Origin: Euglena gracilis
Lineage: Eukaryota
Direction: 5' to 3'
Length of the DNA: 54,128 nucleotides
Assembly (NCBI GenBank): GCA_039621445.1
Contig: CP154954.1
Span: forward strand, 30,942,395 to 30,996,522
Position numbers and translations under genes: made by a program. Below are positions 3,885 to 54,122 of this stretch, piece by piece (the first letter of the stretch is position 1; every line of letters starts with the position of its first letter). Below the pieces are notes generated by a model. That model did not search any database. It saw only the letters and a program-made list of their open reading frames with translations, and was not told the origin of the DNA.

Positions 3885-4176
3885 TGTGTGTATTTAATAT
3901 GTATAAATAAATATATAAATAAATATATACAAGATATATATATGTATATATAGAGATTACATAAACACACACACACACACACATATATATATGTATATAT
4001 ATATATATTATATTTATATATTTATATACATGTATATATATGTATGTATATGTGTATATGTGTGTATATATGTTCATTAATTATTATATATATATATATT
4101 GTATATATTATACATTAATAAAATACACACACGCACACACACACACACATCACCAACACACACACACACACACACA

Positions 4177-4207
<31 letters not shown>

Positions 4208-4210
4208 CAT
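3885..4210. repeat. Compound (TA)n/(CA)n microsatellite
   Basis: Visible dinucleotide runs. Confidence 0.95.
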
Positions 4211-5938
4211 CCGGCGTGGTGGGTTAAAAATGTACCTTCCACATCGTCTCGAGGGGACTCATTGGGGCGTTCTATGCACAACATGTACAACACGGGTAGA
4301 GGTCAAGTTTCGTGTGCAAAAGTTGCAAACGGTAGATTGTGAGCGTGCTTGTTACAAAGGGCCAGGAAGTCAATCCGCGTGGGATGATCCGAAGGGCAGA
4401 CAAGGAACAAATGGCCCCCTTCCGTCAGAAGTTTGCGAAGGACGAGAGGAAGGAGCGAGAACGGAGGGTTGACCCAAATAGGGCGCGGCCTGCTCCAATC
4501 CTGGAGGAAGGCGTTCTGGTATTTATCCCAGAAGGCTGGGCATTGACTGTTGTGCGGCGCCGCAAAGGCGTCAATAATGGGGGGGGACGCAGGCGAAAGC
4601 GTTTGGACGGCGACACGGAACCACCCAGGTTCGAGCATGTAGTCATCCGTGAGAGGCAGTCCGGTATCGGAGGCTCCCACTGGGAGGAGGGGGGAATCTA
4701 GGCGGGTTGGGCCGTCGTGGTTTGAGTGACCCACTGGTGGTGGACACACGGGGGGATGGTACGGCGGTATCAACAGATACCCCTGCCCCGTCATAGGAAC
4801 CACCCGGGTCTGTACAGGGGGGTAGACGGCGTGATGTACATGGTCTACATTCGGGAGAGAGGGTTGGCCTTCTGGGCCAGGAGAGGCGGCAGGCGGGCTA
4901 TCGACAGGGGTGGCCAGGTGTTCCACGGTGCAGCAGGAAGTGTGAGTTGAAAGAAGGAGGAGAGTGTTCGGAAGGGAGGAGGCCTGAGGTAATTTGCACA
5001 AACAGAGCGTGCAGAGGAAGAATCTCCCTTCCGTTGGGCGGAAGAGAAAGTTTCCCCAGCGTCGCAGCCAAATTTGTGCTGCTACAAAATTTCTGTTCCG
5101 CGCGTAAATTCTTTTCCGCAGGCAGATGGTCCAAAAACGTGCGGATTGGCTACGCCAATGACTCAGGTACACCCCTTTGGGGACGTCGGGCTGAGAGGCT
5201 AACCAGCGTCGCAACGACGCGACGGTCAGGGGAACGCGCCGGCCGCCGAAGGACACCGACCCGGAAAAATCCCCCCATTCATTGGATGACACCGTGCCAG
5301 GTGAGAACAAAATCGGTGGAGACGGATCCCGGACACCCGATGAAGGTTGGTCCGAGAGGGATGGAGGACCCAGATAGCTTGTGGGGAAGCCATCCGGGTC
5401 CCCATCCCCCCCCCCCCCGGGCTCCGAGGCTGAGGGGACAGGACTCGGCGGGGGAGGGCAGGGCGGGTGCTCGCCCGAAGGCCAGGGCTGGTCCGGAAGC
5501 CGGGGGGAGGGCCGAAACTTGCACCGAAAAAACCGTGCAGTCTTCCGAGCCCTGGCCTTCCCACAGCAGTGCCTGCTGCCAAGTCTGTATGGGGATGGGC
5601 CCATACCGACTCGGCAGAGCCATCCCAGACCAGCTGCGGGGCACCACAACTTTAATCTGGGGCCCCCCTACCGGGCTGGGCAGGCCAGGTGTGGTGGAAG
5701 GGGGGGGGCCAGGGCAGGGGGGGGGGCCAGGGCAGGGGGGAGACCAGGAGGGGGAGGGGGCAGCTGAAAACCGCCCCCAGGGCGGTTGGGGCCAGAAAAC
5801 TGGGGAAGAGGGGGCTGAGGGGGGGTGTTGTCTCCAAGGCCTGTTTCTAAAAATGTCGCAAGATCTGTCAAAAGCAGATCTTGCGACATTTTTAGAAACA
5901 GGCCGAGGAGGACCAAACCCAGAAATTGGGACATTTGC
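4211..5938 (-). mobile_element. Copy 1 (5'-truncated) of an unclassified Dam-methyltransferase-encoding repeat
   Basis: Near-identical to 6142-6676 joined to 15009-16209. Confidence 0.75.
4303..5649 (-). CDS. ORF ending in a Dam-like N6-adenine DNA methyltransferase domain, preceded by a Cys/His cluster; true start uncertain
   Basis: DDYML...IDAFAAPHN (DAF 4564-4572), NAFLQDW, IWVNPPF (NPPF 4459-4470), LVCP; CTLC...H...C..H upstream. Confidence 0.75.
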   Translation of the reverse strand: MWCPAAGLGWLCRVGMGPSPYRLGSRHCCGKARARKTARFFRCKFRPSPRLPDQPWPSGEHPPCPPPPSPVPSASEPGGGGDGDPDGFPTSYLGPPSLSDQPSSGVRDPSPPILFSPGTVSSNEWGDFSGSVSFGGRRVPLTVASLRRWLASQPDVPKGVYLSHWRSQSARFWTICLRKRIYARNRNFVAAQIWLRRWGNFLFRPTEGRFFLCTLCLCKLPQASSLPNTLLLLSTHTSCCTVEHLATPVDSPPAASPGPEGQPSLPNVDHVHHAVYPPVQTRVVPMTGQGYLLIPPYHPPVCPPPVGHSNHDGPTRLDSPLLPVGASDTGLPLTDDYMLEPGWFRVAVQTLSPASPPIIDAFAAPHNSQCPAFWDKYQNAFLQDWSRPRPIWVNPPFSLLPLVLRKLLTEGGHLFLVCPSDHPTRIDFLALCNKHAHNLPFATFAHET

Positions 5939-6058
5939 TATATGTATATATATGTATGTATATGTGTATATATGTGTGGATATATGTTCATTAATTATTA
6001 TATATTGTATATATTATACATTAATAAAATACACACACGCACACACACACACACCACC

Positions 6059-6120
<62 letters not shown>

Positions 6121-6141
6121 ACACACACACACACACACACA
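5939..6141. repeat. Duplicated (TA)n/(CA)n microsatellite block
   Basis: Same sequence as ~4030-4210, including the unique spacer gttcattaattatt...cattaataaaatac. Confidence 0.9.
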
Positions 6142-7679
6142 TCCGGCGTGGTGGGTTAAAAATGTACCTTCCACATCGTCTCGAGGGGACTCATTGGGGC
6201 GTTCTATGCACAACATGTACAACACGGGTAGAGGTCAAGTTTCGTGTGCAAAAGTTGCAAACGGTGGATTGTGAGCGTGCTTGTTACAAAGGGCCAGGAA
6301 GTCAATCCGCGCGGGATGATCCGAAGGGCAGACAAGGAACAAATGGCCCCCTTCCGTCAAAAGTTTGCGAAGGACGAGAGGAAGGAGCGAGAACGGAGGG
6401 TTGACCCAAATAGGGCGCGGCCTGCTCCAATCCTGGAGGAAGGTGTTCTGGTATTTATCCCAGAAGGCTGGGCATTGACTGTTGTGCGGCGCCGCAAAGG
6501 CGTCAATAATGGGGGGGGACGCAGGCGAAAGCGTTTGGACGGCGACACGGAACCACCCAGGTTCGAGCATGTAGTCATCCGTGAGAGGCAGTCCGGTATC
6601 GGAGGCTCCCACTGGGAGGAGGGGGGAATCTAGGCGGGTTGGGCCGTCGTGGTTTGAGTGACCCACTGGTGGTGGACATAGGTGTAGGAACAATTTTTTC
6701 CCGGGGGGGGGGCGAGCCAAAAAAAATGTTCTTGGCACAACGAATGTCTATTTTTTTTCTGTCCTCCTGGCCCCGAAGGGGGCGAGACCATGGGTTTTTT
6801 TAGTCTTGGACCCCCTCCCCTGGGGGGTAGCAATGGCCAAAAGTTTTCAAAAGGCCCGAAATTTCAGTAAAGTGAAATTTGCACGGTTTTATTGCATTTT
6901 TCCATATTTTCATGAAATCTCAGAAAACTGAAATCTCAACAGTTTCAAAGCATTCGCGGCGATCGCGGACAGAAGGACTTCCTAATTGGGAGCAAAACTT
7001 TTGTTTTTGGTGTGCTCTCCCCTTGAAATTCGTTGTTTTTCTTTGTCTGGAACTCAGAATCGAACTATTTGAAGGATAAGGAATATATTGATGCAGTATT
7101 TATTGAACGTCGAAGCAGGTATGCCCCCTGAAGGTGACTTTTGAGGAATTGTTCTCCTGGTCTTTTCTGATGCATCTAGACCACTTTCAAAAATTTGCCA
7201 TTTTTTCCAAAATACGCTCCGCTGAGTGACAATTTTGAGTGCCACCCTCTTGTGTGGCAGGTCTTCTATTGTGCGTTCTGTTTTTCTATCATTTTCTGGC
7301 GGTCCATGTGGTTTTCTGGTGGTGTTTTACATGAAGGAACTTTTGCTTCCATTTCACAGAGAACACTTGCTGCAGCTCTGTCTTTGACCCGTTTTTTGGG
7401 AGTGTTTTCACCTGGCATTGTGTGCTTTTAATTTTAGGACATGTGGCTTCATTCTGGAATTTTGCCAGATTTGCCAATGTTCTTTTTTCCGTCCCATTTG
7501 TCCGTCATCCAGGTTGTGTTTCATGTGTGATTCTTCCACTCACAGGTTCCACGTGTGGAATGTGAAGTTAGTGTGAAGTTTTAGTCAAAGAAGGTACAAA
7601 AGAAGAAGAAGACGTGAAGATATTGGCAGCTCTTGTCAGAGTCCTGTGGTGTTTTCAGAAAAAACACAGGACTCTGTTG

Positions 7680-9083: not shown

Positions 9084-9972
9084 TCTTATAGTAAATTGCG
9101 CACTTTGTTTTTTGCTTTCTTTATTGGTTTTCTCTTTTGCTGTGTTTCCAGCCTTTATCTTCCTGAAATTTTTATCTGTCAAAAGGGTTTTCTTCTTGCA
9201 GCATGTTCTGAAAACTGGCACCCCCCCCCAAGTGTCAGGGCTGTACGGGAATCCCCTCAACCTGGGAGGTTCCAACCCCCCCCACCAGGGCTTTCCGTTT
9301 TCCTGGCGGCGCCAATTTTTAGTGCCGTGGTGAGCGGTGGGTTTGCCCCCCCCCCCGTACAGCCCAGCCAGTGGATTTCTGTTGAACAAACTTTTCGGAA
9401 GAAAAAGCTAGGATTTCAAGCTGGTGGCTTTGGGAAAGAAGATTGTTGTACCAAAGACCCCCTTTTTTTGAACACGACGGCTTCCGCGGGACTGCTTCCT
9501 AACTGCGAACGTAAGAATTTCTTACATCTAGGCAAGCAAAAAAGTTGTTAGCCCTTACTCCTTTTAAACGTTTTTTTCAAGAGCTAAAAAAGGCACTCGG
9601 CCAGCTCAATGAAGCAGTTCACTTCCGCAGGAAGCAAATATTCACAGTCAATGAAAATCGAACTTTTCATGGTTCACGAAATTACTTACACAAGCCGTGA
9701 AATTTCATGAAAATTACTTACGTGAAAGATTACGGCCTTTGCTACTGGGGGGGGGAGGGGGGTTGTGGGTGGGTCCCTTGGACCCCCTCCCCCCGGGGGG
9801 GGGGGGGGGGGGTTGGGGCTGGTGGGTATATCTTTTTTGGCGCCGAAAATTTTGAAAAGGGTGTTATTTTTGGCCATTTTCGGGCAAAGGTGGGTGGGTC
9901 CTCCGGGACCCTCGCACTCCCTCGAGGCAGACCGAGAAGGGAGGAAGGGACACCGAGGGCGAAGCACAAAGA

Positions 9973-10076
9973 CATTGTGAGGCCATGCCTTGCTCGCCGG
10001 CGGTTTGTTGTGTGATTGTTTTGGTGCGCTGGGTTAGGAGGTCCCGCTTAGTGCCTTTTTTCGCCGGAGTTGGCTG
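9973..10076. repeat. DIRS 3' inverted terminal repeat
   Basis: Reverse complement of 14125-14228. Confidence 0.95.
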
Positions 10077-11262
10077 CTTTGTCTCCGACGTGGCGACCGT
10101 GGCGCTGTTTCTTTGCCTGGGGGGGTCCCCCCCCACCTCCCCCCCCCTGGCCCCCATCTTCTGATCGAGGGCGTTTGAAGACAAATTTTCTTATATGGGT
10201 GGGGGGGTCGGGCTCACAATGTCTTTGTGCTTCGCCCTCGGTGTCCCTTCCTCCCTTCTCGGTCTGCCTCGAGGGAGTGCGAGACACCTCGGGCGCCGCA
10301 CTTTGCCATTGTGAGGCCAGATTGTGCACTGAAAAAAGGGGGGCCAGGGCACTCTCCAAAGCACCTTGTGCACCAAGTCTTTGGTAATGGGCTGTGAAAG
10401 CCTCTACCCCCTTCCACTGACCAATTTCACAAACTTCTTGAGCAGAAAGGCCCATTTTTTTGAGTAAACCAACTCCTGCCCCTCTGGTGGAGTGGGGTCC
10501 CCAAACCTGGGGGGGTACCCCCTGCTGGGCCAAAAAGTGTTTGGTTATCGAAGCAATGGTATCTGCCTTAATGGCTTTATAGGGGGGTTTTAACGTAATC
10601 AGAAGGGGGCCCCCAGGTTTCACCAGGAAACGTGTTGCTGTCACATAAGACATCATCAAACGAAAGGGACTGATTTGGGGGCACTGGGGAATAGAGACAA
10701 CTCTCTCCCACTTATGGAGTTTTTGCCCTTTACGTTTAATTTTGATGTAGGGTGCCCCCCCCAACACACTGGTGGTTCTTTGGACCTGTGCCAAATCAGA
10801 ACTTCTGTATAAACAGAGGATGCGTGAACAGAAAATGAGTTGTGTACGTAATGTACACATATCAGAGGGCAGGGGGGACTGTGCCAGCCCCAGGAGGATT
10901 GGGAGGGGATCCCAGAATGCACCATATTTCTCCAGGTTTTGGTTCCAAAGCCTTTTATAAGGTGCCAACATGGCATGGAACTTCAGGCCACCAAAGCCAG
11001 GGATCAAAAGCATAGCACTGTATGCATTGCGTGCTTGGGCCTTTGAAAATTGGAACAGTTGAATTAAAGCGTCAACCACTTGGTCAGTGGTGGCTTCAGG
11101 GGGGGGTACCCCCATTTTGTCCAAAATTACCCATAAAAGCGTAAAAGCGCTTTGATAACGCTTTAAGCTGGGGTTTCTTCCCAGGAAATCGTTAATGGTT
11201 GTATTTTGTATTTGTTTCCCCTCCAGAATTTGCCTGAGCAAATCATGCAAAGCAGGGGCCAC
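10048..11262 (-). CDS. DIRS tyrosine recombinase
   Basis: Catalytic set R (LYRSSDL), K, HSTR, W (GQWK), Y (AHYQR). Confidence 0.92.
   Translation of the reverse strand: MAPALHDLLRQILEGKQIQNTTINDFLGRNPSLKRYQSAFTLLWVILDKMGVPPPEATTDQVVDALIQLFQFSKAQARNAYSAMLLIPGFGGLKFHAMLAPYKRLWNQNLEKYGAFWDPLPILLGLAQSPLPSDMCTLRTQLIFCSRILCLYRSSDLAQVQRTTSVLGGAPYIKIKRKGQKLHKWERVVSIPQCPQISPFRLMMSYVTATRFLVKPGGPLLITLKPPYKAIKADTIASITKHFLAQQGVPPQVWGPHSTRGAGVGLLKKMGLSAQEVCEIGQWKGVEAFTAHYQRLGAQGALESALAPLFSVHNLASQWQSAAPEVSRTPSRQTEKGGRDTEGEAQRHCEPDPPTHIRKFVFKRPRSEDGGQGGGGGGGPPQAKKQRHGRHVGDKAANSGEKRH
10213..10319. repeat. DIRS internal complementary region (ICR)
   Basis: 10213-10283 is the reverse complement of 9911-9981; 10283-10319 is the reverse complement of 14216-14252 (1 mismatch). 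Confidence 0.9.
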
Positions 11263-13958
11263 CTGGGGGGTGGCATTTTTTCCCCCCTACAATTGGTGAA
11301 CATACCCATGTAGGGGGTGATTTTCAGGCAGGGGGTCCCTGGCACTTTCATTTTTATTAACTGGGGCCACCATGTGGCTGAATCCCAGTAGGGGGTGACC
11401 ATCAAAACTTTGGCCTGTGGAAACATTTTTAATCTGGGGAGAAATTTTTGGATTACAGACCAGGGGGGGTTTGCATAAAGATCCCCCATGTTGTCCAGAG
11501 GACATTGTAATGCACCTACTGCTGTGGCTCCCCAGTGGGGCCACCTGGCCACAAATTGTGGCAGTTTTTTGTTGCCTGGTGAGGCAAAAAGGTCTGTTTT
11601 TAGGCTGATGTAATTTTTGAACTGCTGCCTCAGCCACTGAAAAAGTTGGGGGTCCAGTGAGTAGTCCCCCCTGTCCATTTCCCACCTGCTTATGGGGTCT
11701 GCCAGGCAGTCTTTGGAGGGGACCCACTTTACTTGCAGGTTTATGTTGTGTTCCATGCACCATTTGAAGAAGGGCCTTAGCATGGAATTGAAAGGGTCCT
11801 TTCTGCCCCCCCCTTTTGTTAAGTAATAGTAAATTACTTGATTGTCCACGGATAGGGACACAGTTTCCCCTGGCTGGCTGAGGCTTTGTACTGTGCTTAT
11901 TGCTGCACTTAATTCTTTGACATTTATGTGCAAAATGGAGTTTTCCCTCCAAAATTCTTGCACAATTTTGCCTGTTCGAATGTCCAGCCCCCCCCAGGCA
12001 TGGGTACTGCTGTCTGAGTGCAACTCCCTGGTTGCATTTTGGGGGAAGGGTCTGCCCCCCCAGGTGTCCAGCAGAATTTTTATTTCTCTTAATTGGTCCT
12101 TTATTCTTTGGGAAATGGGATGTTTTGAGTCCCAGGGGGCTGTGGAATTTTCCACCAAAAAATTTGCCAGGGCATCCGTAAAGGCCCTTAGAAAGGGCAG
12201 GGCCATTAGATTGCATCTGATTTGGCCCAAAATGGCAGCCAGCTGCCTTTTTGACATGTTATCTTTTTTCACCATTTTTCCCAGCTCCTTTTTTACTGTT
12301 TTTATTTTCTGGGGGGGCACCTGTAATTTTCCCTCTTGGAGGTTTAGCTGAAATCCAAGATGATTGACGATTTGGGTGGGCTGCAGGGTGGACTTTTTCA
12401 CATTGATTTTGAATCCTGATTTGATTAAATCCCTGACCACTGTGTTCAGGTGATTTTGTAAGATGATTTGTGTTGGGGCCACCAGTAAAATGTCGTCCAG
12501 GTAAATAAATACCTGGATGCCCCTTTTCCTCCACAGTTTCTCGAATGTCTTCATTACTGACATGAAAATTTGGGGCATTACATTCAGGCCAAAACAGCCT
12601 GCCTGGAATTCCCAGGTCTGCCCCCCCACCTGATGCCTTAAAAATGGCCTTAGGCCTGGACTTACTGGAATATGAAAATAGGCATCCTTCAGGTCTATTT
12701 TTGCTGCCCAGTGGCCTTTTTCCAAAACTGGAAAAATGTGCTGGATGTGATCCAGCTTGAAAGGTTTCACTTGGAACCTTTGATTTATTTCCCTGCAATC
12801 GCTTATTAATCTCCATTTTGTCTGCCCCCCCTCTGGTTTTGAAATCAGAAACCAGGGGATCAGGTGCTGGGTGGTTGAATCCCTCACCCTCTTTATGGAT
12901 CCAGATTTTTCGTAATCCAGCAGTATTTTTTCTGCTTGGGGTAAGTTCAAATTTGCCCTGATTTTTGGGTGGGTGGACAATTTTGGTGGGCTGACCCAGG
13001 GGGGTTGAATGCCATCCCTGATGAGTTGACATGTTGTTGGGGGGGCAGTTTTTGCCCACCATTTCAAGCTTTTTTGCAGCCTTCGATGGAGGGGGGTGTC
13101 TCCCCATTTTTCTTCCATGGAATTTATTTCCTGGATAAGATGATTTTGGGGGGGCTGGGCTGGAGATGCTGGGTCATTGAAAGGGCCATTGTGGGTCCCT
13201 TTATCCCCCATTGTTGGCAGAGGGCCACTGTGGGTCCCTCGGGGGATTGCTCCAGCAGCATCCTTAGCTTCTTGGTGGCCACTGTGGGTCCACCCTGCTG
13301 GTTCCTTAGCTTCTTGGTGGCCACTGTGGGTCCACCCTGCTGGTCTCCAAGGTTTCCATGTATAAATTTTTTTCCATAATCCATCTTGTGGTCTTCCAGG
13401 CCTTGATTTCTTCTTGGCCTCCAACCCCATTGGAAATCTGGGGGGGCTGCTGTGGCCCCCCCTTGTCCCCTTGAGAGGGGCTGTTGTGATAGATGAATTG
13501 GGGGGGTTGGACAGACCTTTGCTGCCCCTTCCTGAGGGGATTTCCTTGTGAAACTGGCCCCCATGGCCCCTGTGGTGTTGACCTCCTTGGCCTTGATTCC
13601 ATCTCCCCATCTTCTGGCCAATTTGTGCCCAGGTTGCTGGGCACCTTTGGGGGAGATGCCCTTGATGTGTGGGCTTTGAATGTCCAATTGTGAAGCATTT
13701 TGGGCCCCCATGGCCCAGTCTTTGCCCACCAAGGGTTGGGGCTGGCTTCTGTCTTCTGGGCCTCCTGGCCACAGTGGTCCAAGGACCGTGGCCGTCACTG
13801 GGGGGGGGGTTTGGGCTGTGAAATTTCTGGGGAGGGGGGCTGGGTGGGAAGAACGGCCACGGTTTGCCACGTGTTGACCGCATCTCCAAGGTCTCCAGCT
13901 GCTGCCTCTCCTCCAGGACGTCCGTGGCCATATAATTCCAATTTCTTCTCCACTGCAT
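11163..13958 (-). CDS. DIRS reverse transcriptase - RNase H - Dam-like methyltransferase polyprotein
   Basis: RT: LISDCREIN, IDLKDAYFHI, FGLNVMP, IYLDD. RNase H: SDSSTHAWGG, HINVKEL, VDN, ADPISR. MT: DLFAS..N, LYANPPW, VTPYW...WW. Confidence 0.95.
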   Translation of the reverse strand: MQWRRNWNYMATDVLEERQQLETLEMRSTRGKPWPFFPPSPPPQKFHSPNPPPSDGHGPWTTVARRPRRQKPAPTLGGQRLGHGGPKCFTIGHSKPTHQGHLPQRCPATWAQIGQKMGRWNQGQGGQHHRGHGGQFHKEIPSGRGSKGLSNPPNSSITTAPLKGTRGGHSSPPRFPMGLEAKKKSRPGRPQDGLWKKIYTWKPWRPAGWTHSGHQEAKEPAGWTHSGHQEAKDAAGAIPRGTHSGPLPTMGDKGTHNGPFNDPASPAQPPQNHLIQEINSMEEKWGDTPLHRRLQKSLKWWAKTAPPTTCQLIRDGIQPPWVSPPKLSTHPKIRANLNLPQAEKILLDYEKSGSIKRVRDSTTQHLIPWFLISKPEGGQTKWRLISDCREINQRFQVKPFKLDHIQHIFPVLEKGHWAAKIDLKDAYFHIPVSPGLRPFLRHQVGGQTWEFQAGCFGLNVMPQIFMSVMKTFEKLWRKRGIQVFIYLDDILLVAPTQIILQNHLNTVVRDLIKSGFKINVKKSTLQPTQIVNHLGFQLNLQEGKLQVPPQKIKTVKKELGKMVKKDNMSKRQLAAILGQIRCNLMALPFLRAFTDALANFLVENSTAPWDSKHPISQRIKDQLREIKILLDTWGGRPFPQNATRELHSDSSTHAWGGLDIRTGKIVQEFWRENSILHINVKELSAAISTVQSLSQPGETVSLSVDNQVIYYYLTKGGGRKDPFNSMLRPFFKWCMEHNINLQVKWVPSKDCLADPISRWEMDRGDYSLDPQLFQWLRQQFKNYISLKTDLFASPGNKKLPQFVARWPHWGATAVGALQCPLDNMGDLYANPPWSVIQKFLPRLKMFPQAKVLMVTPYWDSATWWPQLIKMKVPGTPCLKITPYMGMFTNCRGEKMPPPRWPLLCMICSGKFWRGNKYKIQPLTISWEETPA

Positions 13959-14002
13959 TGCTCATCGAAGTCGAAATTGAAATTTGACAATTGAATTCTC
14001 AA
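13124..14002 (-). CDS. Alternative-frame ORF at the DIRS gag position (function unknown)
   Basis: 292-aa open frame overlapping the 5' part of the RT ORF; contains a ~42-bp tandem duplication (13262-13343); no Gag motif recognised. Confidence 0.3.
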   Translation of the reverse strand: MRIQLSNFNFDFDEQCSGEEIGIIWPRTSWRRGSSWRPWRCGQHVANRGRSSHPAPLPRNFTAQTPPPVTATVLGPLWPGGPEDRSQPQPLVGKDWAMGAQNASQLDIQSPHIKGISPKGAQQPGHKLARRWGDGIKAKEVNTTGAMGASFTRKSPQEGAAKVCPTPPIHLSQQPLSRGQGGATAAPPDFQWGWRPRRNQGLEDHKMDYGKKFIHGNLGDQQGGPTVATKKLRNQQGGPTVATKKLRMLLEQSPEGPTVALCQQWGIKGPTMALSMTQHLQPSPPKIILSRK

Positions 14003-14124
14003 TTGATTTTCGTCTGGTTCGTGTTCTTCTGGATATTGAATTGATATTTGACTTCTTTTCTCAGTTCTTCCTCGTTCTTGAACTCTGTTCCTTTCTTCTG
14101 GGTGTCGAAGGGCAAGTTAAGAAT

Positions 14125-14228
14125 CAGCCAACTCCGGCGAAAAAAGGCACTAAGCGGGACCTCCTAACCCAGCGCACCAAAACAATCACACAACAAACCG
14201 CCGGCGAGCAAGGCATGGCCTCACAATG
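14125..14228. repeat. DIRS 5' inverted terminal repeat
   Basis: Reverse complement of 9973-10076. Confidence 0.95.
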
Positions 14229-15000
14229 GCAAAGTGCGGAGCCCGAGGTGTCCCTCCCTCCCCCTCGGGGGGGCCCACCCCAGGGGGTGGTTGGGTGGGT
14301 GCCGACCCCCTCCCCCCCCTGGTCTTAAAAAAAACCCTGGCCGAGACGCTAATGTCTCTTTAAAGTCCAAGGAGCCCGGGTACAGGGGAGGGGGGGGTCC
14401 CGGACCTCCCCTATTCACTTCCGAACTGAACTGAACATGTTGACTTCCCGGAGGAGGGTGTGTCCGGCGCCGAAGGCGCCAAATTTTTTTTTGAAAAATG
14501 CCCTTTTCGGTGTTAACACGTTCAGGTTCACGGGGGGGGGGTCTCGGGACCCCCCCTGTGCACTTCCGAAGTGAAATGAATAGGGGGAGGGGGGAGGGGG
14601 AGTCCGGGGTCCCGAAGTGGACTACCTAGCCTCCAATGCCAAAAAATCAAACTAGAAAGCGAAATCATGGGTAGAATCCCAAAAAAACAATTAGTATCAA
14701 AGGAGGAGCCTCAAGGGCTTTATTTCGGCCGCCAGAGGCGGCCGAGACGGTAATGGATTTTGCAATTTCATTTTCTAGAAATGTGATTTTTACTGGCAAG
14801 GTGGCTGCCGAAGGCAGCCGAGATGGTAACGCCCTTCGAACCATTGATCATGTGCAAAGGAAAATATCATACTCATGCCAAAAAATTTTCTTTCCAAAAT
14901 CCCGGGGGGGGGGGCGCCCGCGGCCGCCCCCCCCCCGGGGGGGGGGGGGGGGGGCGGGCGGCCGCCCCCCCCCCCCCGACCCCCACTTTCTACACCCATG

Positions 15001-15930
15001 GTGGTGGACACACGGGGGGATGGTACGGCGGTATCAACAGATACCCCTGCCCCGTCATAGGAACCACCGGGGTCTGTACAGGGGGGTTGACGCGTGATGT
15101 ACATGGTCTACATTCGGGAGAGAGGGTTGGCCTTCTGGGCCAGGAGAGGCGGCAGGCGGGCTATCGACAGGGGTGGCCAGGTGTTCCACGGTGCAGCAGG
15201 AAGTGTGAGTTGAAAGAAGGAGGAGAGTGTTCGGAAGGGAGGAGGCCTGAGGTAATTTGCACAAACAGAGCGTGCAGAGGAAGAATCTCCCTTCCGTTGG
15301 GCGGAAGAGAAAGTTTCCCCAGCGTCGCAGCCAAATTTGTGCTGCTACAAAATTTCTGTTCCGCGCGTAAATTCTTTTCCGCAGGCAGATGGTCCAAAAA
15401 CGTGCGGATTGGCTACGCCAATGACTCAGGTACACCCCTTTGGGGACGTCGGGCTGAGAGGCTAACCAGCGTCGCAACGACGCGACGGTCAGGGGAACGC
15501 GCCGGCCGCCGAAGGACACCGACCCGGAAAAATCCCCCCATTCGTTGGATGACACCGTGCCAGGCGAGAACAAAATCGGTGGAGACGGATCCCGGACACC
15601 CGATGAAGGTTGGTCCGAGAGGGATGGAGGACCCAGATAGCTTGTGGGGAAGCCATCCGGGTCCCCATCCCCCCCCCCCCGGGCTCCGAGGCTGAGGGGA
15701 CAGGACTCGGCGGGGGAGGGCAGGGCGGGTGCTCGCCCGAAGGCCAGGGCTGGTCCGGAAGCCGGGGGGAGGGCCGAAACTTGCACCGAAAAAACCGTGC
15801 AGTCTTCCGAGCCCTGGCCTTCCCACAGCAATGCCTGCTGCAGGGCTGGAGGAAGGCGCTGCCAAGTTTGTATGGGGATGGGCCCATACCGACTCGCCAG
15901 AGCCATCCCAGACCAGCTGCGGGGCACCAC
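15001..15930 (-). pseudogene. ORF-B of the Dam element (5' part; continues at 6676 into the Dam domain)
   Basis: Same peptide as the 4303-5649 ORF (LRRWLASQPDV...FFLCTLCLC). Confidence 0.65.
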
Positions 15931-15934
15931 AACT

Positions 15935-17064
15935 TTAATCTGGGGCCCCCCTACCGGGCTGGGCAGGCCAGGTGTGGTGGAAGGGGGGGGGGCCAGGGCA
16001 GGGGGGGGGCCAGGGCAGGGGGGAGACCAGGAGGGGGAGGGGGCAGCTGAAAACCGCCCCCAGGGCGGTTGGGGCCAGAAAACTGGGGAAGAGGGGGCTG
16101 AGGGGGGGTGTTGTCTCCAAGGCCTTTTTTGGGGGTGTCAAAAGCAGATCTTGCGACATTTTTACAAACAGGCCGAGGAGGACCAAACCCAGAAATTGGG
16201 ACATTTGCTGAGCCAACACTGGGAGAGCCAAGGCCAGGACCAAACCCAGAACCTTGAACATTTGTTGAGCCAACACTGGGAGAGCCAAAAACAGGATCAG
16301 GAGCATTTGTGCAATCAAAATTGTGGCTGCCAGAACCATTTGCTGCAGAACTCCTTTGTCCAAAATTCAAAATTTGTCCAACATTCGTTGATTTGAAATG
16401 CTTTCCAATGAACCCCACCCCAGACACAGGCACAACAGGGGCAAGGGAAGCCACAGGGACATTGTGACCAGTTTGCTGGGGGGTGCTGTGTGCCACACTG
16501 GGGGGGGGGGCAGATCCTAGCAAATCAGACACATGGGGCACATTTTGGGTGGGAGAGGGGGTGATTGGGCTCACAGGGGGGGGGAAGAACACATTGAACC
16601 AGAGATGGGGGCAGATTGGGGGAGGAGGGGGCAGAGGGAGCAACGTGCCAACCAGCCGAAGCTGGAATCTGGTCAATGGGGGGCTGTGGCACAGGTAAAG
16701 GGGGGTGGGGGGCTGTTGCTGTTGTTGGGGCCACTGGCGTCGTTAGGCGGAGCAGTTGTTCTCGGAGTTCAGCTTCCTCAGCTTTTTGTTTCTTTTCTTG
16801 GGCCTTCATTCTGGCTTGCAATTGCTTCAGCTCCATGTGTAAATTGAAGATAGTGCGATGTCGTTTGTCAGGCCGCTTGCCTTTGCCCTTCAGCACTGCT
16901 TTGGACTGCTCCTCTGGCTGCCTTGGAGGGGGTACAGGCACCTCATTGACGCTCTGTACTGAAGCCGGACTGAGGGTAATGTCCATCGGGTCTTCGACAT
17001 CATCCACAGTAATCTCATCCGGGATATCCTCAGACCCCACCAGGGGCTTTGCATTGTCCGACAT
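15935..17064 (-). pseudogene. ORF-A of the Dam element: acidic N-terminus, coiled coil, Pro-rich region; frameshifts in G/C runs
   Basis: ATG at 17064 (MSDNAKPLVG) lies 10 nt after the spliced-leader copy; MELKQLQARMKAQEKKQKAEEAELREQLLRL is coiled-coil-like; continues in the 15951-16676 frame. Confidence 0.55.
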
Positions 17065-17074
17065 GATATGCAGA

Positions 17075-17099
17075 CGAAAAAAAATAGACACTCAGAAAG
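17075..17099 (-). other. Genomic copy of the euglenid spliced-leader exon
   Basis: Minus strand CTTTCTGAGTGTCTATTTTTTTTCG matches 25 of 26 nt of the Euglena gracilis SL (ACTTTCTGAGTGTCTATTTTTTTTCG, recalled from memory); followed by TCTGCATATCATG, not a GT donor. Confidence 0.85.
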
Positions 17100-17636
17100 C
17101 CCTCCGTGATTTTTTTCCATCTTTCACGGTGGGTAGCACAGCTTCACCCAACCGTGCCCCGGGCCCAGGGAAACGTCTCTTTTGGCCCTCGCCACAAGAG
17201 GAACCCCCTTGTGACTCCCTGTGCCGCCACAGGTCGCGGGTTGCTTATACTATGGGTGTTATGTACAGAAGAGAGGAGAGTGCCGAGTAACTGTGAAGAG
17301 TGTGGGCGGGCAGGGGGGGGGGTGTTTGTACCTCCTTTGCCACGGGATGGCGTGTTTGTGTCGGGATTTTGCTCTTCTTGCCGTGTGCGTTAGGTCCTTC
17401 TTGCATGTGTGCGTCAGGTCCTTAGGTGGTGGGACAGGGAGGGAGTGTCAGCTTGGGCTTGGGCTGTTTTGCTCCATGGATTCATGGGTTGGAGTTAATT
17501 TTTGCCTTGGTCTCGAACATATGGCTACAATGACGATGGCGGCATACCAAGGAGAGGATATAGAGGAAATGAAGCGGGTAGGGTTCAAGTGGAGGGGATG
17601 GGTTAACCAAGGTCAACAGGTGGTTGGCAAAGGTGT

Positions 17637-18194
17637 TTATTGGGAATACGGGAGGTGGCAACCGGCAGACAGGTCAATGTCATTTGACAGGTTGGTGTAG
17701 AAGCTCCATACCAGTTGTTTAGAGATTTCTTTGGCCAGGGTTAGTGAGAGTCCTTGCCACACTTCTGCTTCGGTTTGGCGCTGAAGCCAACCCTCCCTTT
17801 GCCCTATCAAGGCTTTGAGGAGGGTGGACATCAGAGAACGGCCTTGTTGCCCCAGGCCGCCAAAGCAATCAAGCACAAATGGGGTAAGGCGCCAACCTCG
17901 TCTCGAACAAGTTGCGTCATATTTGCGGTGTTTGTCTGCTTCTTGTTTTTCTTGCCAAATCGGAAGTTGTGCGGCACGGCTCAGAGGGTTGCTTGGGGTC
18001 TGTGTGTGACGAATGGTGACGTCGATGGCGACCGGGCCCTCACTGTCAAGGCGAGGGATGAAGATATCACCAGGGCGGGAGTTGTCATCAGCCCGTTGTT
18101 CTTTTTTGGCTTGGAATCCGGCACGTTGAGCCAAGGAGGTAAGGAAGTCTTGGACCGCTGCATGTCGCTTGTAAAGGTTGTTGAATTTGCAACA
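17637..18194 (-). pseudogene. 5'-truncated CRE-clade element: REL endonuclease domain
   Basis: CCKFNNLYKRHAAVQD, RPGDIFIP, AIDVTIRH, EADKHRKY, PFVLDCFGGLG. Confidence 0.85.
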
Positions 18195-20238
18195 TAACAG
18201 CCCTGAACGTTGCTGTTCAGAAATTGTTGTTGTTGTGGAGGTGAGAGTAATTTACAATACACAACTTGATATCTGTCACAGGGTAAGTGGGCCGTTGTCG
18301 ACCTTTTTTGTGTCTCATGTGTCTTTTTCCGATCTTTGTCGGTCATAACTCACTCGAGTGGTTGGCGGTGCCTCAAATTACATGGTCCCTGAATGGGCCA
18401 GCTTGGTGGGCCAAATCCTGTTTTGTCTTCTTGCGTGAAGATGAAGTGTTTTCAGACGAGGCTTTTGTGACTCATCGTTTCTGGGTCGGATACAATGAGA
18501 ATCGTGTGCAATGCAAATGCAAGCTGTTTTTTATAGAGCAAGGGTGATGGGCCGGTGATGGGGGGACCGGAGGAGCTGATGAAGTATTCTCAGACCGGTT
18601 TTTTGTGTGTCATATGCTGGATTTCCGATCTTTGTCGGTTCTGGCTGCTGTCCCAAATTGTGGTATGTTGCTTACATACTATACTGCTGTTCATCATTGT
18701 TGTAACAGCCCTCCCAGCGGCCACTCCTAATTACAAACGCTGTACGAAAAGCGGATCTGATTAAGAAAATTTGGATATGACGAACCAACACATCCACGTT
18801 CAGGTCGAAGATGTGATCTCCTGACAATCCTCATTCCTCATCTTCAGAGTGCTGCTTCATATGGAGATTCTTTTGTGACCGGAAATGCTTTGATTGGGCT
18901 ATTGGTTGGATTCTTCCTGTTGTTCATCGCCTGGAATGGTGTCTCGCGATTGATGGACATCCAGACCAGTGATCGTCTGGGATCTAAAGACCCCAGGGAA
19001 AGCATGCAAAAAATGTGACCTTACCGCCTTTGTTCTCCCTTCCTTTTGCTTAGCAGATGGATGGAAATAAATGTGCAAGTTATTGAAAAAAAATGACAGA
19101 GATGGTCACGCATGTTCCATAGATGTGCCTTGCCACTTTTTGTTGAAAAAAATGCTGAATGAAGCCCCCATACAGATGAATGTGGAGGTTTCCTTCCCGG
19201 GTAGGATGGCTGACCATATTTTTGGCCATTTGTGAAAAAGCCTGTCACATCTTGTCAACCATTTTACTGGTGAACCGGTTAAAAGGGAGTTTGTTGGGTT
19301 CAAGCGTGCAGCAAAACCAAGGGCTGAGGCTCCTCTCGCAGCCAGGTTGCATTGGAGGGTGATGGGGGGTCATGTGGATGGGTCATCAGGGAAAGGCATA
19401 TTTACCGTTGGCCGCATTACGATCACCAAGGGAGACTAGGCAGGGGGGAGAGGTGGTCCAGGGGGGTCCAGGAGGGGTCGAAAAGGGGTCTAGCTGGGGC
19501 GCCCCCCCCTTTTCTAGTTGTTCGGAACTCGACAGGGGGAGTCCACGAGCCCCCCCTGTACATGACCAGTCCAGACCCCGGACCCCCCCTTGAACTCGAC
19601 CTGTCTGGTTGACAGGGCGGTCCCGCGGGACCCCCTGTCGGGTACCCCAGGCACCCCCATGGTACACATGGGGGGACCCTCGCTCGGCGCCTCTTGTTCG
19701 CGACTTGACCCCTACCTCCAAAAATGACAAGTCCCCCAAAATTGGTTAAAAGGAAATTACCACCATACCCCCCCCCTTTATGTTCCCTAAATCCCCTATA
19801 TACCTCTATAAAGCATTTTGGACACTTTTTGGCACTTTTTATTTTGGGTCCCCTGGATGCCGGCTTCACGCCTGAACCGGCTTCCCAGACGCCGGCTTGG
19901 GCGTGAAGCCGGAGCCCCAGACACAGTTTCATATAAAGGGATTTTCCCCTTTGGGAGCCCAAAAGGTCAACGGGCTTTATCTTTCTTTCCCCCTGCCTGC
20001 TCTTTGGGATCACGTCCGGGCCCCAGGGGGGCATCCCCTGGGAGCCCAGGCACATGCACCCCCCCCCATTATGTACCCCCCATCAGGTACCCCCTGGGGG
20101 GAGGTACATAAAAGGGGGGGGGGCAGCACACACCTAGGAATGCAACTTGCCCGGATACTTGTCTGTTATCGTACGACGGACCCCCCCCTTTTGGTTATGG
20201 GACGGCACCCTTTTTTGGGGTCGTTTTAGGGTCATTTT

Positions 20239-20504
20239 AAGGGATAGGGTTAGGCGCTAATGGCCATGTTGCGCCACATGGCCATGTTGCGCTACACAGC
20301 CATGTTGCGCTACGTGGCCGTGCAGCGCTATATGGCCACGTAGCGCAACACGGCCGTATTGCGCTACACAGCCACGTAGCGCAACATGGCCGTGTAGCGC
20401 TACATGGCCACGTTGCGCTACACGGCCATGTAGCACAACATGCCCGTGTAGCGCAACATGGCCATGTAGCGCAACATGCATGTGCGCACCTAACCCTATC
20501 CCTT
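20239..20504. repeat. 18-bp minisatellite (~12 units, TGGCCRTGTWGCGCWACA-like) bracketed by inverted repeats
   Basis: AAGGGATAGGGTTAGG...CCTAACCCTATCCCTT flanks; periodic units between them. Confidence 0.8.
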
Positions 20505-23544: not shown

Positions 23545-24508
23545 ACTACAAAAAAGGGGGGCGGACGCCGGTTCTGTCCAAAACCCGGCGTTCCGGACAC
23601 CGGTTCCGTCCGAAGGACGGAACCGGCGTCCGGAACGCCGGGTTTTGGACAGAACCGGCGTCCGCCACCCCTTGTTTAAAGCGGCGTTTTAGAGACGCCG
23701 GGTTCAGGACAGAACCGGCGTCCCCACCCTTCGGTCAAAGGACACTCCCAGGACCAATCTCCGACCACTTATCTGCAATGTCACGCCACTTTGCATTTCA
23801 CCAAATTCCGGCGATCGCGAGGGTATTTCTGGCTGTGTCGATCGTCCTGGTACAAAGTCACCCCTCAATCAAAAGCTCTTTTCATCAGACGACTGGCGAT
23901 CACCACCAAATTCAGCCACGCCGCCTGGAGCTCTTACTTTTTGTCACTGGGAAATCCTAATTTCACAACTCTCGTGCCCCCTGGAACCCCTCAGGTGGTT
24001 GATTCGAAGAGAAAAAACGTTTCTGTAAGGTTTATTAAGCATCTTAAACCAAAAATCACTGAAAATCACCACACATTTCGACTCAGATTCTGGCCGATCC
24101 GACGATCGCGAGCGTATCTCGGGCTGCGTGCAACGTTAGGGTACCAAGTTACCCCTCGATCGAAAGCTCTTTTCAACAGACGACCAGCGGTGCTCATCAG
24201 ATCTTTCCACGCTGCACGGTACTCTATTTCCAAATCTGGGCCAATTTTCACCAAATTTGGATATCCACCCCAGTGGTCCCCAAATGGCAAAATTCATTGT
24301 CCTAGATGGTTGAAACAGTCATACCAGCACCTTAGGGCCACTTTTGGGCACTTTTGGTGACATTTTTAGGAATGAAAACCGGACGCCGGGTTTTGGACAA
24401 AACCGGCGTTCCTAACGCCGGGTTTTAGGACAGAACCGGCGTCCGTAAAACCCGTGGGGGGGGACGCCGGTTCTGTCCTGAGCCCGGCGTCTCAAACGCC
24501 GGTTTAAA
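23545..24508. mobile_element. Non-autonomous ~960-bp repeat with a terminal long hairpin and asymmetric inverted repeats, copy 1
   Basis: Hairpin at 23554-23673 (GAA loop); IR 23677-23725 vs 24460-24508; homologous to 26341-27305 and 36368-37433. Confidence 0.7.
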
Positions 24509-26340: not shown

Positions 26341-27305
26341 TACTACAAAAAAGAGGTGTCGGACGCCGGTTCTGTCCAAAGCCCGGCGTTCCGGACGCCG
26401 GTTCCGTCCGAAGGACGGAACCGGCGTCCGGAACGCCGGGCTTTGGACAGAACCGGCGTCCGACACCTCTTGTTTAATCCGGCGTTTTAGAGACGCCGGG
26501 CTCAGGACAGAACCGGCGTCCCCAACCTTCGGCCAAAGGACACTCCCAGGACCAATCTCCGACCACTGATCTGCAATGTCACACCACTTTGCACTTCACC
26601 AAATTCCGGCGATCGCGAGGGTATTTCTGGTTGTGTCAATCGTCCAGGTATAAAATCACCCCTCGATCGAAAGCTCTTTTCATCAGACGACTGGCGATCA
26701 CCACCAAATTCAGCCACGTCGCCTGGAGCTCTTATTTTCTGTCAGTGGGGAATCCTAATTTCACAACTCTGGTGCCCCCCCAAGGCCCTCAGGTCGTTGA
26801 TTCGAAGAGGAAAAACGTTTCTGTAAGGTTTATTAAGCATCTTAAACCAAAAATCACTGAAAATTGCGACAAATTTCGACTCAGATTCTGGCCGATCCGA
26901 CGATCGCGAGCATATCTCGGGCTGCGTGCAACGTTAGGGTACCAAGTTACCCCTCGATCGAAAGCTCTTTTCAACAGACGACCAGCGGTGCTCATCAGAT
27001 CTTTCCACGCTGCACGGTACTCTATTTCCAAATCTGGGCCAATTTTCACCAAATTTGGATATCCACCCTAGTGGTCCCCAGATGGCAAAATTCATTGTCC
27101 TTGATGGTTGAAACACTCATACCAGCACCTTAGGGCCACTTTTGGGCACTTTTGGTGACATTTTGAGGAATGAAAATCGGACGCCGGGCTTTGGACAAAG
27201 CCGGCGTTCCTAACGCCGGGCTTTAGGACAGAACCGGCGTCCGGAAGCCCGTGGGGGGGGGGACGCCGGTTCTGTCCTGAGCCCGGCGTCTCAAACGCCG
27301 GCTTA
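26341..27305. mobile_element. Hairpin/IR repeat, copy 2
   Basis: Perfect 59-bp-arm hairpin at 26351-26471. Confidence 0.7.
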
Positions 27306-27383
27306 GATATGGGCCTTGTCGGCGCTGGTGTGGGGGGTACATACCTCCCCCCCGTGTGCCCCCCCCCAGGACCTGCGTGTACC

Positions 27384-28109
27384 CAGGGTTGACGTTTTTT
27401 TTGTTTTTTCCAAAAAAAACAAAAAAACATTTTTTTTTTCAAAAAAAAATGCAAAAAAAACATTTTTTTTTGAAAAAGCAAAAATTGACCTTTTTTGAAG
27501 AAAATTTTTCGCGGGTGGTTCGGGTCACCAGGGGGGGGGGTCACGGGGGGGTCACAGGGGGGGGGTCACGAGGGGGGGGTCACATTTTCGGTGGCCAGAT
27601 TAGAAATCACCGAAAACGAATTTTCGGGAAAAAATTCCTTTTTATGCTCCTTATAATCCTTATAATCCTTTTTAGGCTCCAAAATAGGAATCCCCCAAAC
27701 GAAAATTAGGAAATCTACCGGAATTAGGCATCACCGTGTCAAATTAGGCAAATCATGTCAAATTAGGCATCACCGGCCAAGTTTTTCAGAAAAAAATGGC
27801 CGAAACGGGTCTTAGGTCGGGTTGGGGGAGGGGGGTCATGGGGGGAACACCCCCTTTGAAGTTTTTTTTTTCAAATGTGTGAAAGTATTTCCAAATCTGT
27901 GTTTTCTGGTGCGAAAAATCATGCTTTCAACCCAAAAAAATGAATGTTGTAGAGATAAAAAATGTACTTTTCCCCCAAAAAACATTGCAAAAATTTTTTC
28001 CCCCAAACCCTCCATGACGTTTTTTTTTGCTTTTTTTAAAAAAAACATATATTTTTTTTAAAAAAAACATGTTTTTTTTTGTTTCAAAAGAAACAAGCCG
28101 TCAACCTTG
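27384..28109. mobile_element. hAT-like MITE, same family as 1609-2272
   Basis: CAGGGTTGACG...CGTCAACCTTG; 8-bp TSD CGTGTACC. Confidence 0.9.
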
Positions 28110-28925
28110 CGTGTACCCCCCCAGGACCTGACAGGTACAACAGGTACTGGGGGGGGTACGTACCTATTTAGACATGGGCCTTGTCGGCGCCGGTGTGGGG
28201 GGGTACGTACCCCCCCAGGACCTGCGTGTACCCCCCCAGGACCTGGACAGGTACAACAGGTGCTGGGGGGGGGTTGTACCCCAGGTACGTACCCCCCAGA
28301 ACCCCCCCCCCCCAGGCCCAGACCGACACCCGACCGGGGCCAGGTTTGGAGATTTGAGAATGCATTTTCTTGTTTCGTGGGAAACGCATAATTCTTGTTA
28401 AAACTTGGTGGTGGTGCCAGATTTGGAATTTGGCAAAATAATTAGGTTTGGTGACCCTTAATTTGGTCCGTGCTATTTGCCTGCCATTCTGAAATTCCTA
28501 CAGACCCCCCCAAATTTCTGGTGATTTTGGTGGTTTTTTGAAATGGTGACGAAACCCCCGAAAATCCCCCCCCCCTTCAAAAGAGGACCTGGGAGTGCTT
28601 TTGGGGGTTTTTTCCACAACCGTCAGGCAATTATTGCAGATGATCTGAACAAATTTTGGGACATTTTTTTCCCTCAATCATTGAGCTCGAAAGGTGCATA
28701 TTTTGCCAGCATCCCACAATTGAAAGAATTTACATTTTTTTTGACCAATTTGGATGGAAAAGTGCGGTTGGCTTGTGCCTGAAAATGCCCCCGCCTGATT
28801 TTGGACGAAAAACGCGGCCGCAGGGGGGGGGAGCTCTCGATGCGCTACTGTAATTCGAGGTTCAAGCCAACTGGGACAATTAGGGCGGGGGGGGGGGCTC
28901 GAGGACCCCAGCTGACCCATTTTTA

Positions 28926-54108: not shown

Positions 54109-54122
54109 NNNNNNNNNNNNNN
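54109..54122. other. Assembly gap
   Basis: 14 N bases. Confidence 1.

Follow-up and report, generated by a model that had tools for sequence, protein, structure and literature searches.

In dinoflagellates, DNA-encoded relicts of the spliced leader (SL), the DinoSL relicts, are an accepted mark of retrogenes, as described in three reports (PMC6050394, PMC5585692, PMC12014239). Long interspersed nuclear elements (LINEs) that carry a restriction-like endonuclease and target SL exons are known from trypanosomatids and nematodes, according to PMC4640811, and for the trypanosomatid L1Tc/ingi elements an internal promoter, Pr77, and unspliced transcripts are described in PMC1874656 and PMC8190864. 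Here, a genome-encoded SL of Euglena gracilis is described at the 5' end of an apparent LINE (minus strand, 17099 to 14994) within a 54,128-nucleotide stretch of the E. gracilis genome, referred to as the window (assembly GCA_039621445.1, contig CP154954.1, positions 30,942,395 to 30,996,522 of the forward strand).

Retroelements of E. gracilis that carry a Dam domain have been reported as DAM-DIRS, DAM-LTR with LINE-like reverse transcriptases (RTs), and EpiLTR (preprint 10.64898/2026.05.21.726589), with cases of the LINE-like kind being explained there by Ty3-like structures, by nested insertions or as artefacts. The term 'spliced leader' does not occur in the main text of that preprint, and one of its two passages containing 'trans-splic' concerns promoter methylation, not retroelement 5' ends. 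In a literature search that covered few subscription journals, no published account was found of SLs encoded in the Euglena genome or of Euglena retroelements headed by one.

A spliced leader encoded at the 5' end of the unit

The E. gracilis SL is given as ACTTTCTGAGTGTCTATTTTTTTTCG in PMC6242988, with an SL primer in PMC5654406. On the minus strand of the window, positions 17099-17075 read CTTTCTGAGTGTCTATTTTTTTTCG, corresponding to nucleotides 2-26 of this 26-nucleotide leader (25 of 26 nucleotides), with a G at 17100 in place of the first A. The match is exact and unique, as the 25-mer occurs a single time in the window with up to three mismatches allowed, and was matched in none of 100 dinucleotide-preserving shuffles. 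No relict SL was found elsewhere in the window, the sole other match being a 17-mer with two mismatches on the opposite strand (6744-6760).

Read along the minus strand, the order is ...CACGGAGGG, the SL, a 10-nucleotide 5' untranslated region (UTR; TCTGCATATC, 17065-17074), and the ATG of an open reading frame (ORF) termed ORF-A. The two bases 3' of the SL are TC, and a GT donor is absent there. The junction of SL and UTR therefore coincides with the end of the SL exon, as in a retro-copy of a trans-spliced mRNA of the DinoSL-relict type. The two bases preceding the UTR are CG rather than AG, and the last AG 5' of the ATG falls within the SL itself (17092-17091). On its 5' side, the SL is separated from the tail of another LINE by a 24-nucleotide spacer on the same strand (AAGATGGAAAAAAATCACGGAGGG, 17100-17123). 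Within this spacer, seven consecutive As stand 10 nucleotides ahead of the SL, and positions 17103-17102 are AG.

The preliminary description of this locus had reported a minus-strand SL, 10 nucleotides, the ORF-A ATG and no GT donor, and had taken the leader to be the Euglena SL exon. The arrangement can be read directly in the sequence, and the concern that the host SL might differ from the window leader is removed by the match to nucleotides 2-26 of the published SL. Its identification of the host as a euglenid is supported, because the SL is identical to that of E. gracilis. The SL points to a Euglena-type euglenid, but the same 24-mer heads at least four types of SL-RNA gene, and the SL therefore indicates no particular species.

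Comparison with SL-RNA genes

A scan of metagenome contigs with the SL 24-mer yielded seven matches on six contigs (loci L001-L006), all of them in SL-RNA genes, and it is these that comprise the four or more gene types sharing the 24-mer. In each of the seven, the SL is followed by GTAT and later by an Sm-like AATTTTTG(G/A), while the flank 5' of the SL (TTTCTGAG) ends in ..TTACA(C) or ..GGTACAC. In two of the seven, one on L002 and one on L006, the 3' end of a 5S ribosomal RNA gene precedes the SL.

The window SL has no donor, SL-RNA intron or Sm site, being followed instead by its 10-nucleotide UTR, and its 5' flank (..CACGGAGGGC) is not of the TTACA(C)/GGTACAC type. No match to 5S or other Rfam families was found near the SL-headed unit; between L001-L006 and the window, similarity is confined to the SL, (GT)n and telomere-like repeats. 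Viral contigs scanned with the SL 24-mer, and with the LINE polyprotein P0007 considered below, gave no match in either case. Judged from these sequence features, the window SL is not an SL-RNA gene. A remnant of such a gene unrelated to the ORF, the alternative raised in the preliminary description, thus finds neither donor, Sm site nor upstream flank in the window, and the ORF-linked SL stands.

The SL-headed unit as the 5' part of a LINE

ORF-A (16525-17064, minus strand; 179 amino acids), with an acidic N-terminus and a lysine/glutamate-rich, helix-like stretch, forms the start of an ORF1-like region, the rest of which (14994-16524, minus strand) includes ORF-B (15055-15906). The region is proline-rich and orphan. 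In this copy (copy 1) there are three changes of open frame, near homopolymer stretches of 9-12 Cs or Gs, and the region was probably at first one long ORF1-like frame from 17064 onward.

A second copy of the region (copy 2; 4729-5939, minus strand) is 95.9% identical to 14994-16209 and lacks both the SL and the 5' part. In copy 2, a single open frame of 454 amino acids (4303-5667) leads from the ORF-B sequence, with no stop, into a continuation (4303-4746, minus strand) that holds a degenerate 2A-like site and a Dam-like methyltransferase domain (Pfam PF05869, E 1.4e-8; alignment A1). A third fragment (5939-6678, minus strand; 93.9% identical to 4027-4746) consists of the Dam-like part and a (GT)n/AT-rich stretch only. 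This stretch 3' of the Dam part was considered as a LINE tail and rejected, since it is 94% common with the third fragment, representing a local duplication, and cuts Dam short.

Copies 1 and 2 part company at 14994/4729, exactly at the 2A-like/pre-Dam position in alignment A1. For copy 1, the end of homology lies close to the limit of 15001 given previously, and represents a break rather than a natural 3' end; copy 2 is itself broken off after the Dam part. At the point where the SL-headed unit breaks off lies a near-palindromic block of G/C homopolymers (14901-14990; runs of 10-18 nucleotides each), which could reflect either a hairpin at the breakpoint or a fault of assembly. Copy 2 also carries a snap-back inverted duplication (5823-5890, minus strand; CTGTTTCTAAAAATGTCGCAAGATCTG ... 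CAGATCTTGCGACATTTTTAGAAACAG), where the copy 1 sequence is unrelated.

Word-indexed searches covering proteins of near or greater length found no relatives of ORF-A or ORF-B, and neither matches a Pfam or PHROG family; the best Atlas score for the two, 0.86, is a lead only. A full HMMER scan of 1.84 billion representatives with the copy-2 ORF gave 318 proteins at E <= 1e-3, and among the 150 listed of these none starts before copy-2 residue 252, only the Dam part being recognised. Dam was present in 11 of the 12 relatives scanned, and in two of the 12 (P0007 and P0010) it is accompanied by RVT_1, about 600 residues further on. In P0007 (1294 amino acids) and P0010 (1273 amino acids), which are among the best relatives of the copy-2 Dam, an N-terminal Dam and the motif GDIESNPGP or GDVEANPGP are accompanied by RVT_1, by a CCHC motif and, at the C-terminus, by a nuclease part. 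The D(V/I)ExNPGP motif is 2A-like, and is positioned about 30 amino acids before Dam in P0001, P0005 and P0009, where copy 2 has the degenerate PPYHPPVCPPP (alignment A1). P0001, P0004, P0005, P0007, P0009 and P0010 are LINE-type polyproteins in which one to three such motifs flank Dam. The combination of RT, CCHC motif and PD-(D/E)xK nuclease in one polyprotein is found in P0007 and P0010, and also in a LINE at the start of the window (LINE(a), 1-2600). Comparison of P0007, profile A2 and a 355-amino acid ORF of a neighbouring element with PDB sequences gave no meaningful sequence match.

Because the copy-2 frame continues into a Dam whose relatives include polyproteins with Dam, 2A-like motifs, RT and nuclease, the SL-headed unit is predicted to represent a LINE-type polyprotein element of which just the 5' part, ending at the break at 14994, is present. 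The element of the preliminary description (15001-17099) is real as an SL-headed unit, but is no self-contained element of 2.1 kb and constitutes only the 5' part of a LINE. Truncation at the 5' end is usual for target-primed reverse transcription, and its extent varies in the window, with copy 2 starting at the equivalent of 16209, a further piece, LINE(b), at about residue 405 of P0007, and the LINE upstream of the SL at about residue 1120.

A LINE tail upstream of the SL

Upstream of the spacer lies a 204-amino acid frame (17637-18251, minus strand) that matches the C-termini of P0007 (31%, E 1e-21) and P0010 (29%, E 3e-22), and that would represent the C-terminal restriction-like endonuclease part of a 5'-truncated LINE. 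When a model of 17640-18209 (predicted local distance difference test score 65.6, from a four-row alignment) was submitted to Foldseek, R2 retrotransposon proteins occupied ranks 1-6 and 9, followed in the ranking by PD-(D/E)xK nucleases. These R2 matches are weak (E 5e-3 to 1.4e-2, probability 0.96-1.0), and the model provides a weak but coherent indication of an R2-like nuclease fold. The frame leads into a 3' UTR (17124-17636, minus strand), and 18251-17124 is accordingly predicted to be what remains of a 5'-truncated LINE, namely its endonuclease end and 3' UTR. This LINE would belong to the superfamily of the SL-headed unit.

This is not the only LINE 3' end in the window. On the plus strand, LINE(a) is coding to about 2600, and its tail, made up of four ACATAACGGG-like units, reaches about 3010. 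The 5'-truncated LINE(b) (3026-3880, plus strand; P0007 residues 405-676) starts between about 3010 and 3026 in the same orientation. Both LINE 3' ends in the window (17124 to 17099, and about 3010 to 3026) therefore lead into a LINE piece of the same orientation. At the second of these head-to-tail junctions (2940-3026, plus strand), the ACATAACGGG-like tail directly adjoins the 5'-truncated LINE.

Two modules of the 3' UTR of the LINE upstream of the SL, its last 150 or so nucleotides (17124-17273) and 17344-17430, are very abundant in public read sets, with a summed depth of up to about 10^6 against 10^3-10^4 nearby. The tail module ends at 17123/17124, and in other contigs it is followed by 8-30 unrelated letters and then by a partial tail (joints from 17172, 17189 and 17197 back to 17124); these repeated tail modules are tandem truncated tails. 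The modules may be the tail of a SINE-like (short interspersed element-like) LINE partner. The fold of 17100-17290 is not unusual (z = -1.35), and the abundant module matches no Rfam family or transfer RNA. An identity as a long terminal repeat was rejected, there being no second copy in the window and a LINE endonuclease ORF preceding the module.

Copies in public read sets

Four of four runs were aligned to 14995-17600 at 88% likeness, with contigs used for X1, X3 and X15 and raw RNA reads for X21; X1 and X3 are assigned to DNA and X15 to RNA by guess only. Statements on ends concern the part listed for each run, beyond which lie 428 loose ends and 7599 contig pieces. In X1 and X3, all 30 bins are covered, at a single-contig depth of about 22-240. 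Summed depth in X1, to which X3 is similar, is 10^3 to 2 x 10^4 over the ORF body, and about 170-460 in bin 15082-15168. It then rises in X1 from 1.5 x 10^5 (16996-17082) through 3.7 x 10^5 (17083-17169) to 9.6 x 10^5 (17170-17256), stands at 4 x 10^4 and then 10^5 in the two bins that follow, and is 2-4 x 10^3 beyond 17431. Two repeats are therefore distinguished: the ORF body, which has many copies, and the stretch 5' of the SL, whose abundance is far greater.

In the contigs listed, homology between diverged copies is lost at 17098-17100, that is, at the 5' end of the SL. For instance, X1 record 7 (16961-17099) and X3 record 24 (16938-17099) are about 91% identical to the window and have 56 further letters past 17099 that are unlike it, whereas X15 record 12 (17034-17098) has 93 unlike letters beyond, ending ..GACAGAAAAAAACCCACCCCAG before TTTCTGAG. 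Three joints lead from 17099 or 17100 to 17150, 17154 or 17167. Depths on the two sides are more than 10-fold apart. The preliminary description had proposed that homology should stop at the SL in a retro-copy, and such a stop is what the diverged copies display. The companion proposal, that homology extending into 17100-17330 would indicate a hard-wired SL, proves to be confounded: 17100-17330 forms the 3' end of another LINE and is itself a repeat of very high abundance.

The RNA reads of X21 add further detail. Twelve reads lose their fit at 17099, and eleven at 17124. The consensus of the former ends in ..ACA, as in the published SL primer, and its agreement is low (0.57); for these reasons, the 12 reads probably derive from SL-RNA genes or precursors. 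In a further 12 reads, ..TTTTTTTTCG and CATAATA stand before 17065, and indels at 17065-17072 are present in 7-9 of 17-29 reads. Variant UTRs are thus joined to the same ATG region, and the SL would therefore have been joined at more than one position within the family. In other RNA reads, the tail end at 17124 is followed by C and TGTCTGTTTTTTTT, resembling SL nucleotides 11-24 with one mismatch.

Origin of the encoded SL

The SL ends at an exon boundary without a donor, the unit is apparently a non-LTR (non-long terminal repeat) retrotransposon, and the diverged copies end at 17098-17100. For these reasons, the SL probably marks the true 5' end of a full-length LINE copy, of the Dam/2A-like/RT/restriction-like-endonuclease kind, whose template was the trans-spliced mRNA of the element, copied to its capped end. 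Non-LTR retrotransposons copy RNA up to the 5' end. Reverse transcription from a trans-spliced mRNA was one of two possibilities offered in the preliminary description, and it is the better supported by the exact exon end, the missing donor, the LINE nature of the unit and the loss of homology at the SL, although trans-splicing of the template itself is presumed from the product.

According to this explanation, the transcript of the element would be trans-spliced like an ordinary Euglena mRNA, with the SL added at an acceptor 10 nucleotides before the ATG. The RT of the element would then copy the mature RNA by target-primed reverse transcription to the cap or to one base short of it, thereby fixing SL nucleotides 2-26 in DNA. 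Stalling and untemplated addition at a modified cap could account for the absent first A and for the Gs that precede the SL. The 5' end may have been joined to the tail of another LINE by a jump of the RT between RNA ends, or because LINEs insert at each other's tails. Later, the copy would have been broken at 14994, where the G/C homopolymer palindrome follows, and would have decayed by frameshifts.

Several observations weigh against a retro-copy of the element's own mRNA. The 3' end, tail and target-site duplication of the SL-bearing copy were lost with the break at 14994, and retroposition of this copy is therefore not demonstrable end to end. Only the Dam-side part of the SL-bearing family is present in the window, with its RT and endonuclease not seen there, so that the link to LINEs rests on the relatives of the Dam domain. 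No SL-less parent locus carrying an AG acceptor at the junction was seen, with no genome-wide census behind this result. The DNA status of X1 and X3 is guessed; the three joints at 17099 or 17100 have short sides of 20-26 letters, are weak evidence and may be unreliable; and the X15 contig has a similar run of seven As 10 nucleotides before the SL, so that some upstream similarity is present. In addition, the SL and the next 42 nucleotides (17033-17099) have a summed depth of 2-3 x 10^5, more than 10-fold above the value of about 10^4 for the body of the ORF. Over 17033-17074, the greater part of the depth has 17051 G>C together with 17052 C>A, creating a TGA at ORF-A codon 5, and 23 RNA reads of X21 continue differently below 17033. 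The first 67 nucleotides may thus belong to, or be borrowed from, a different and far more abundant SL-headed family, perhaps non-coding, and translation may not really begin at the ATG of ORF-A.

This abundance bears on the possibility that the SL is hard-wired, having been acquired once and inherited through cycles of retrotransposition, perhaps as a ready-made 5' end. Such a scenario is compatible with an origin by retro-copying, and is suggested by the summed depth over the SL, the UTR and the next 32 nucleotides (2-3 x 10^5, compared with 22-60 for single contigs), and by recurrence of the same junction in 32 contigs of X1 and 22-24 of X3. Moreover, the RNA-type contig X15 record 12 enters the SL from unlike upstream sequence, and encoded SLs are therefore transcribable by read-through. 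However, with CG before the UTR the same junction could not be re-made by splicing, whereas re-splicing at the AG within the SL (17092-17091) should leave a full SL followed by a 16-nucleotide relict, and the window holds no such relict. The presence of more than one SL-UTR junction among the RNA reads, and the absence of reads bridging 17099-17124 from those listed for X21, also speak against inheritance of a fixed SL, which is regarded as rather unlikely.

A broader version of this idea can be envisaged, in which Euglena harbours a large family of SL-headed retroposons, with the SL as a heritable functional 5' module on full-length LINEs and on an abundant short derivative consisting of the SL and 42 nucleotides. 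The head-to-tail arrangement would then arise because the endonuclease/RT recognises SL ends or LINE tails. This is a speculative proposal, to which a fairly low likelihood is attached; if true, each full-length insertion would make the landing site of the next one, and possibly its splice or translation context.

Another possibility is that ORF-A and ORF-B derive from a cellular mRNA retroposed by LINE machinery, forming a family of processed pseudogenes outside any LINE. The lack of detectable relatives or domains for both ORFs, and the attachment of RT to neither copy, would be in keeping with this origin. Nonetheless, a cellular pseudogene is improbable because the copy-2 frame continues stop-free into a 2A-like remnant and a Dam domain typical of LINE polyproteins, and there are many diverged copies, among which 5' truncation occurs.

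A more direct connection to SL-RNA genes is conceivable, whereby the SL would stem from a gene harbouring or transcribing the element, as for SLACS, CZAR, CRE and NeSL-1, with the related idea that the upstream LINE targets the SL. Both flanking pieces are assigned to restriction-like-endonuclease LINEs, a group that includes SL-gene-specific clades (PMC4640811), and the upstream tail lies 24 nucleotides from the SL. LINE tails recur near SL-like sequence, including the tail end at 17124 followed by C and TGTCTGTTTTTTTT, and targeting of SLs or tails remains conceivable for this reason, but the latter stretch could equally be an ordinary polypyrimidine tract followed by AG. Against a gene origin, the promoter-type flank, donor, intron and Sm site that mark SL-RNA genes are absent from the window. 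The whole exon also stops precisely at the splice point, a position where the insertion of an element into a gene would fall only fortuitously. The single SL is unsplit by the element and has no second part, unlike the situation in SLACS and CRE, making derivation from an SL-RNA gene very improbable.

Finally, an assembly artefact, such as a join that is chimeric or derived from complementary DNA, could be suspected from the G/C homopolymer palindromes (14901-14990) and the frame changes at homopolymers, which make the local assembly quality doubtful, but it is hardly credible because the SL-ORF-A junction recurs in two runs from separate studies, being spanned, and passed beyond the SL, by X1 record 7 and X3 record 24.

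Other elements in the window

On the 3' side of the SL-headed unit lies a retroelement (9911-14262, minus strand) with 141-nucleotide inverted terminal repeats (9939-10079 and 14122-14262, 92%), internal copies of the repeat end (10210-10319), and an ORF (11163-13958) with RT (RVT_1) and a weak Dam match; a partial second copy is present at 42615-43980 on the plus strand. This RT/Dam neighbour, lying downstream of the element as first described, is separate and not part of the SL-headed unit, having its own inverted repeats. The possibility that ORF-A is the gag of the 9911-14262 element was likewise rejected, since the latter possesses inverted repeats of its own and the SL-headed unit takes a different course in copy 2. 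Copy 2 is not followed by an element of this type, and the other copy at 42615-43980 is not preceded by an SL-headed unit. DIRS-like features (inverted repeats, RT/RNase H/Dam, tyrosine recombinase) are absent from the SL-headed unit, with inverted repeats, RT and weak Dam belonging to the neighbour. The 355-amino acid ORF (10048-11115) was not confirmed as a recombinase by domain, PDB-sequence or PHROG searches, the suggestion having come from a sequence motif only, and is not claimed as such.

A large retroelement occupies 46000-54128 (plus strand). Its ORF at 47366-49291 encodes a coiled coil, that at 50413-51597 is gag-like and includes two zinc knuckles, and that at 52028-54127, still open where the window stops, has Dam-like, weak C5-methylase and weak aspartic-protease matches. 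The element corresponds to the EpiLTR type of E. gracilis, as that type is described in preprint 10.64898/2026.05.21.726589.

Repeats of other kinds include a satellite array (29900-35500; at least 76 copies, alternating 71- and 88-nucleotide spacing, GC skew +0.55), an array of 18-nucleotide units (20242-20493; 11 units, ATGGCCATGTTGCGCYAC-like) that is also self-complementary, and degenerate interstitial telomere-like (TTAGGG)n blocks in both orientations (40209-40349, 40659-40738 and 40740-40905). A segmental duplication involves 23550-24225, 26348-28730 and 36375-38730, with an offset of about 10.1 kb and up to 100% identity over 300 nucleotides, and has a third partial copy 2.8 kb away.

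Comparison with known systems

If the SL was acquired as proposed, it marks, to the base, where the RNA of a retrotransposon begins in an organism that uses trans-splicing. As with the DinoSL relicts, a leader added at the RNA level is encoded in DNA at the 5' end of a retro-copy, and tags reverse transcription of a mature mRNA. The Euglena unit differs in its euglenid host, and in that the retrotransposon itself is tagged rather than a cellular gene; it also has one SL lacking its first base, with no stacked truncated relicts, and adjoins the 3' end of another LINE. Donor-less genomic SLs could serve to list and date retroposition in the repeat-rich genome of a euglenid, as DinoSL relicts do.

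The insertion site of SLACS, CZAR, CRE1/2 and NeSL-1 lies inside the SL exon. The likeness to the Euglena case consists of a Euglenozoan or SL-using host, a LINE with a C-terminal zinc finger and PD-(D/E)xK-type endonuclease, and an association with the SL. These elements interrupt SL-RNA genes, whereas the Euglena unit involves no SL-RNA gene and has the whole exon placed before its own UTR, and an N-terminal Dam and 2A-like sites are present in its relatives.

Template jumping yields head-to-tail joins with few extra bases, end to end, as is the case for R2. R2 structures (9dou, 8gh6 and 9nl2) come closest in fold to the upstream nuclease part, but sequence similarity to R2 is not detectable and a ribosomal DNA target is absent, and jumping in the Euglena case is suggested by the junction only (for R2, see PMC8594491). 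With regard to the Dam-carrying retroelements already described from E. gracilis, the same Dam-like domain is involved, and some of the RTs in that study branch with LINE/L1-like ones, as stated in preprint 10.64898/2026.05.21.726589. The present locus would tie the Dam-carrying LINE-like elements to real head-to-tail LINE arrays, making mutual targeting of tails or SLs testable.

Like L1Tc and ingi, the Euglena unit is a LINE in a trans-splicing euglenozoan that faces a problem at its 5' end. The solutions appear to be different, as the 5' end of the Euglena unit is the SL itself. Thus, the template of a Euglena LINE can probably be an ordinary trans-spliced mRNA, in contrast to the unspliced, Pr77-driven LINE transcripts of trypanosomatids.

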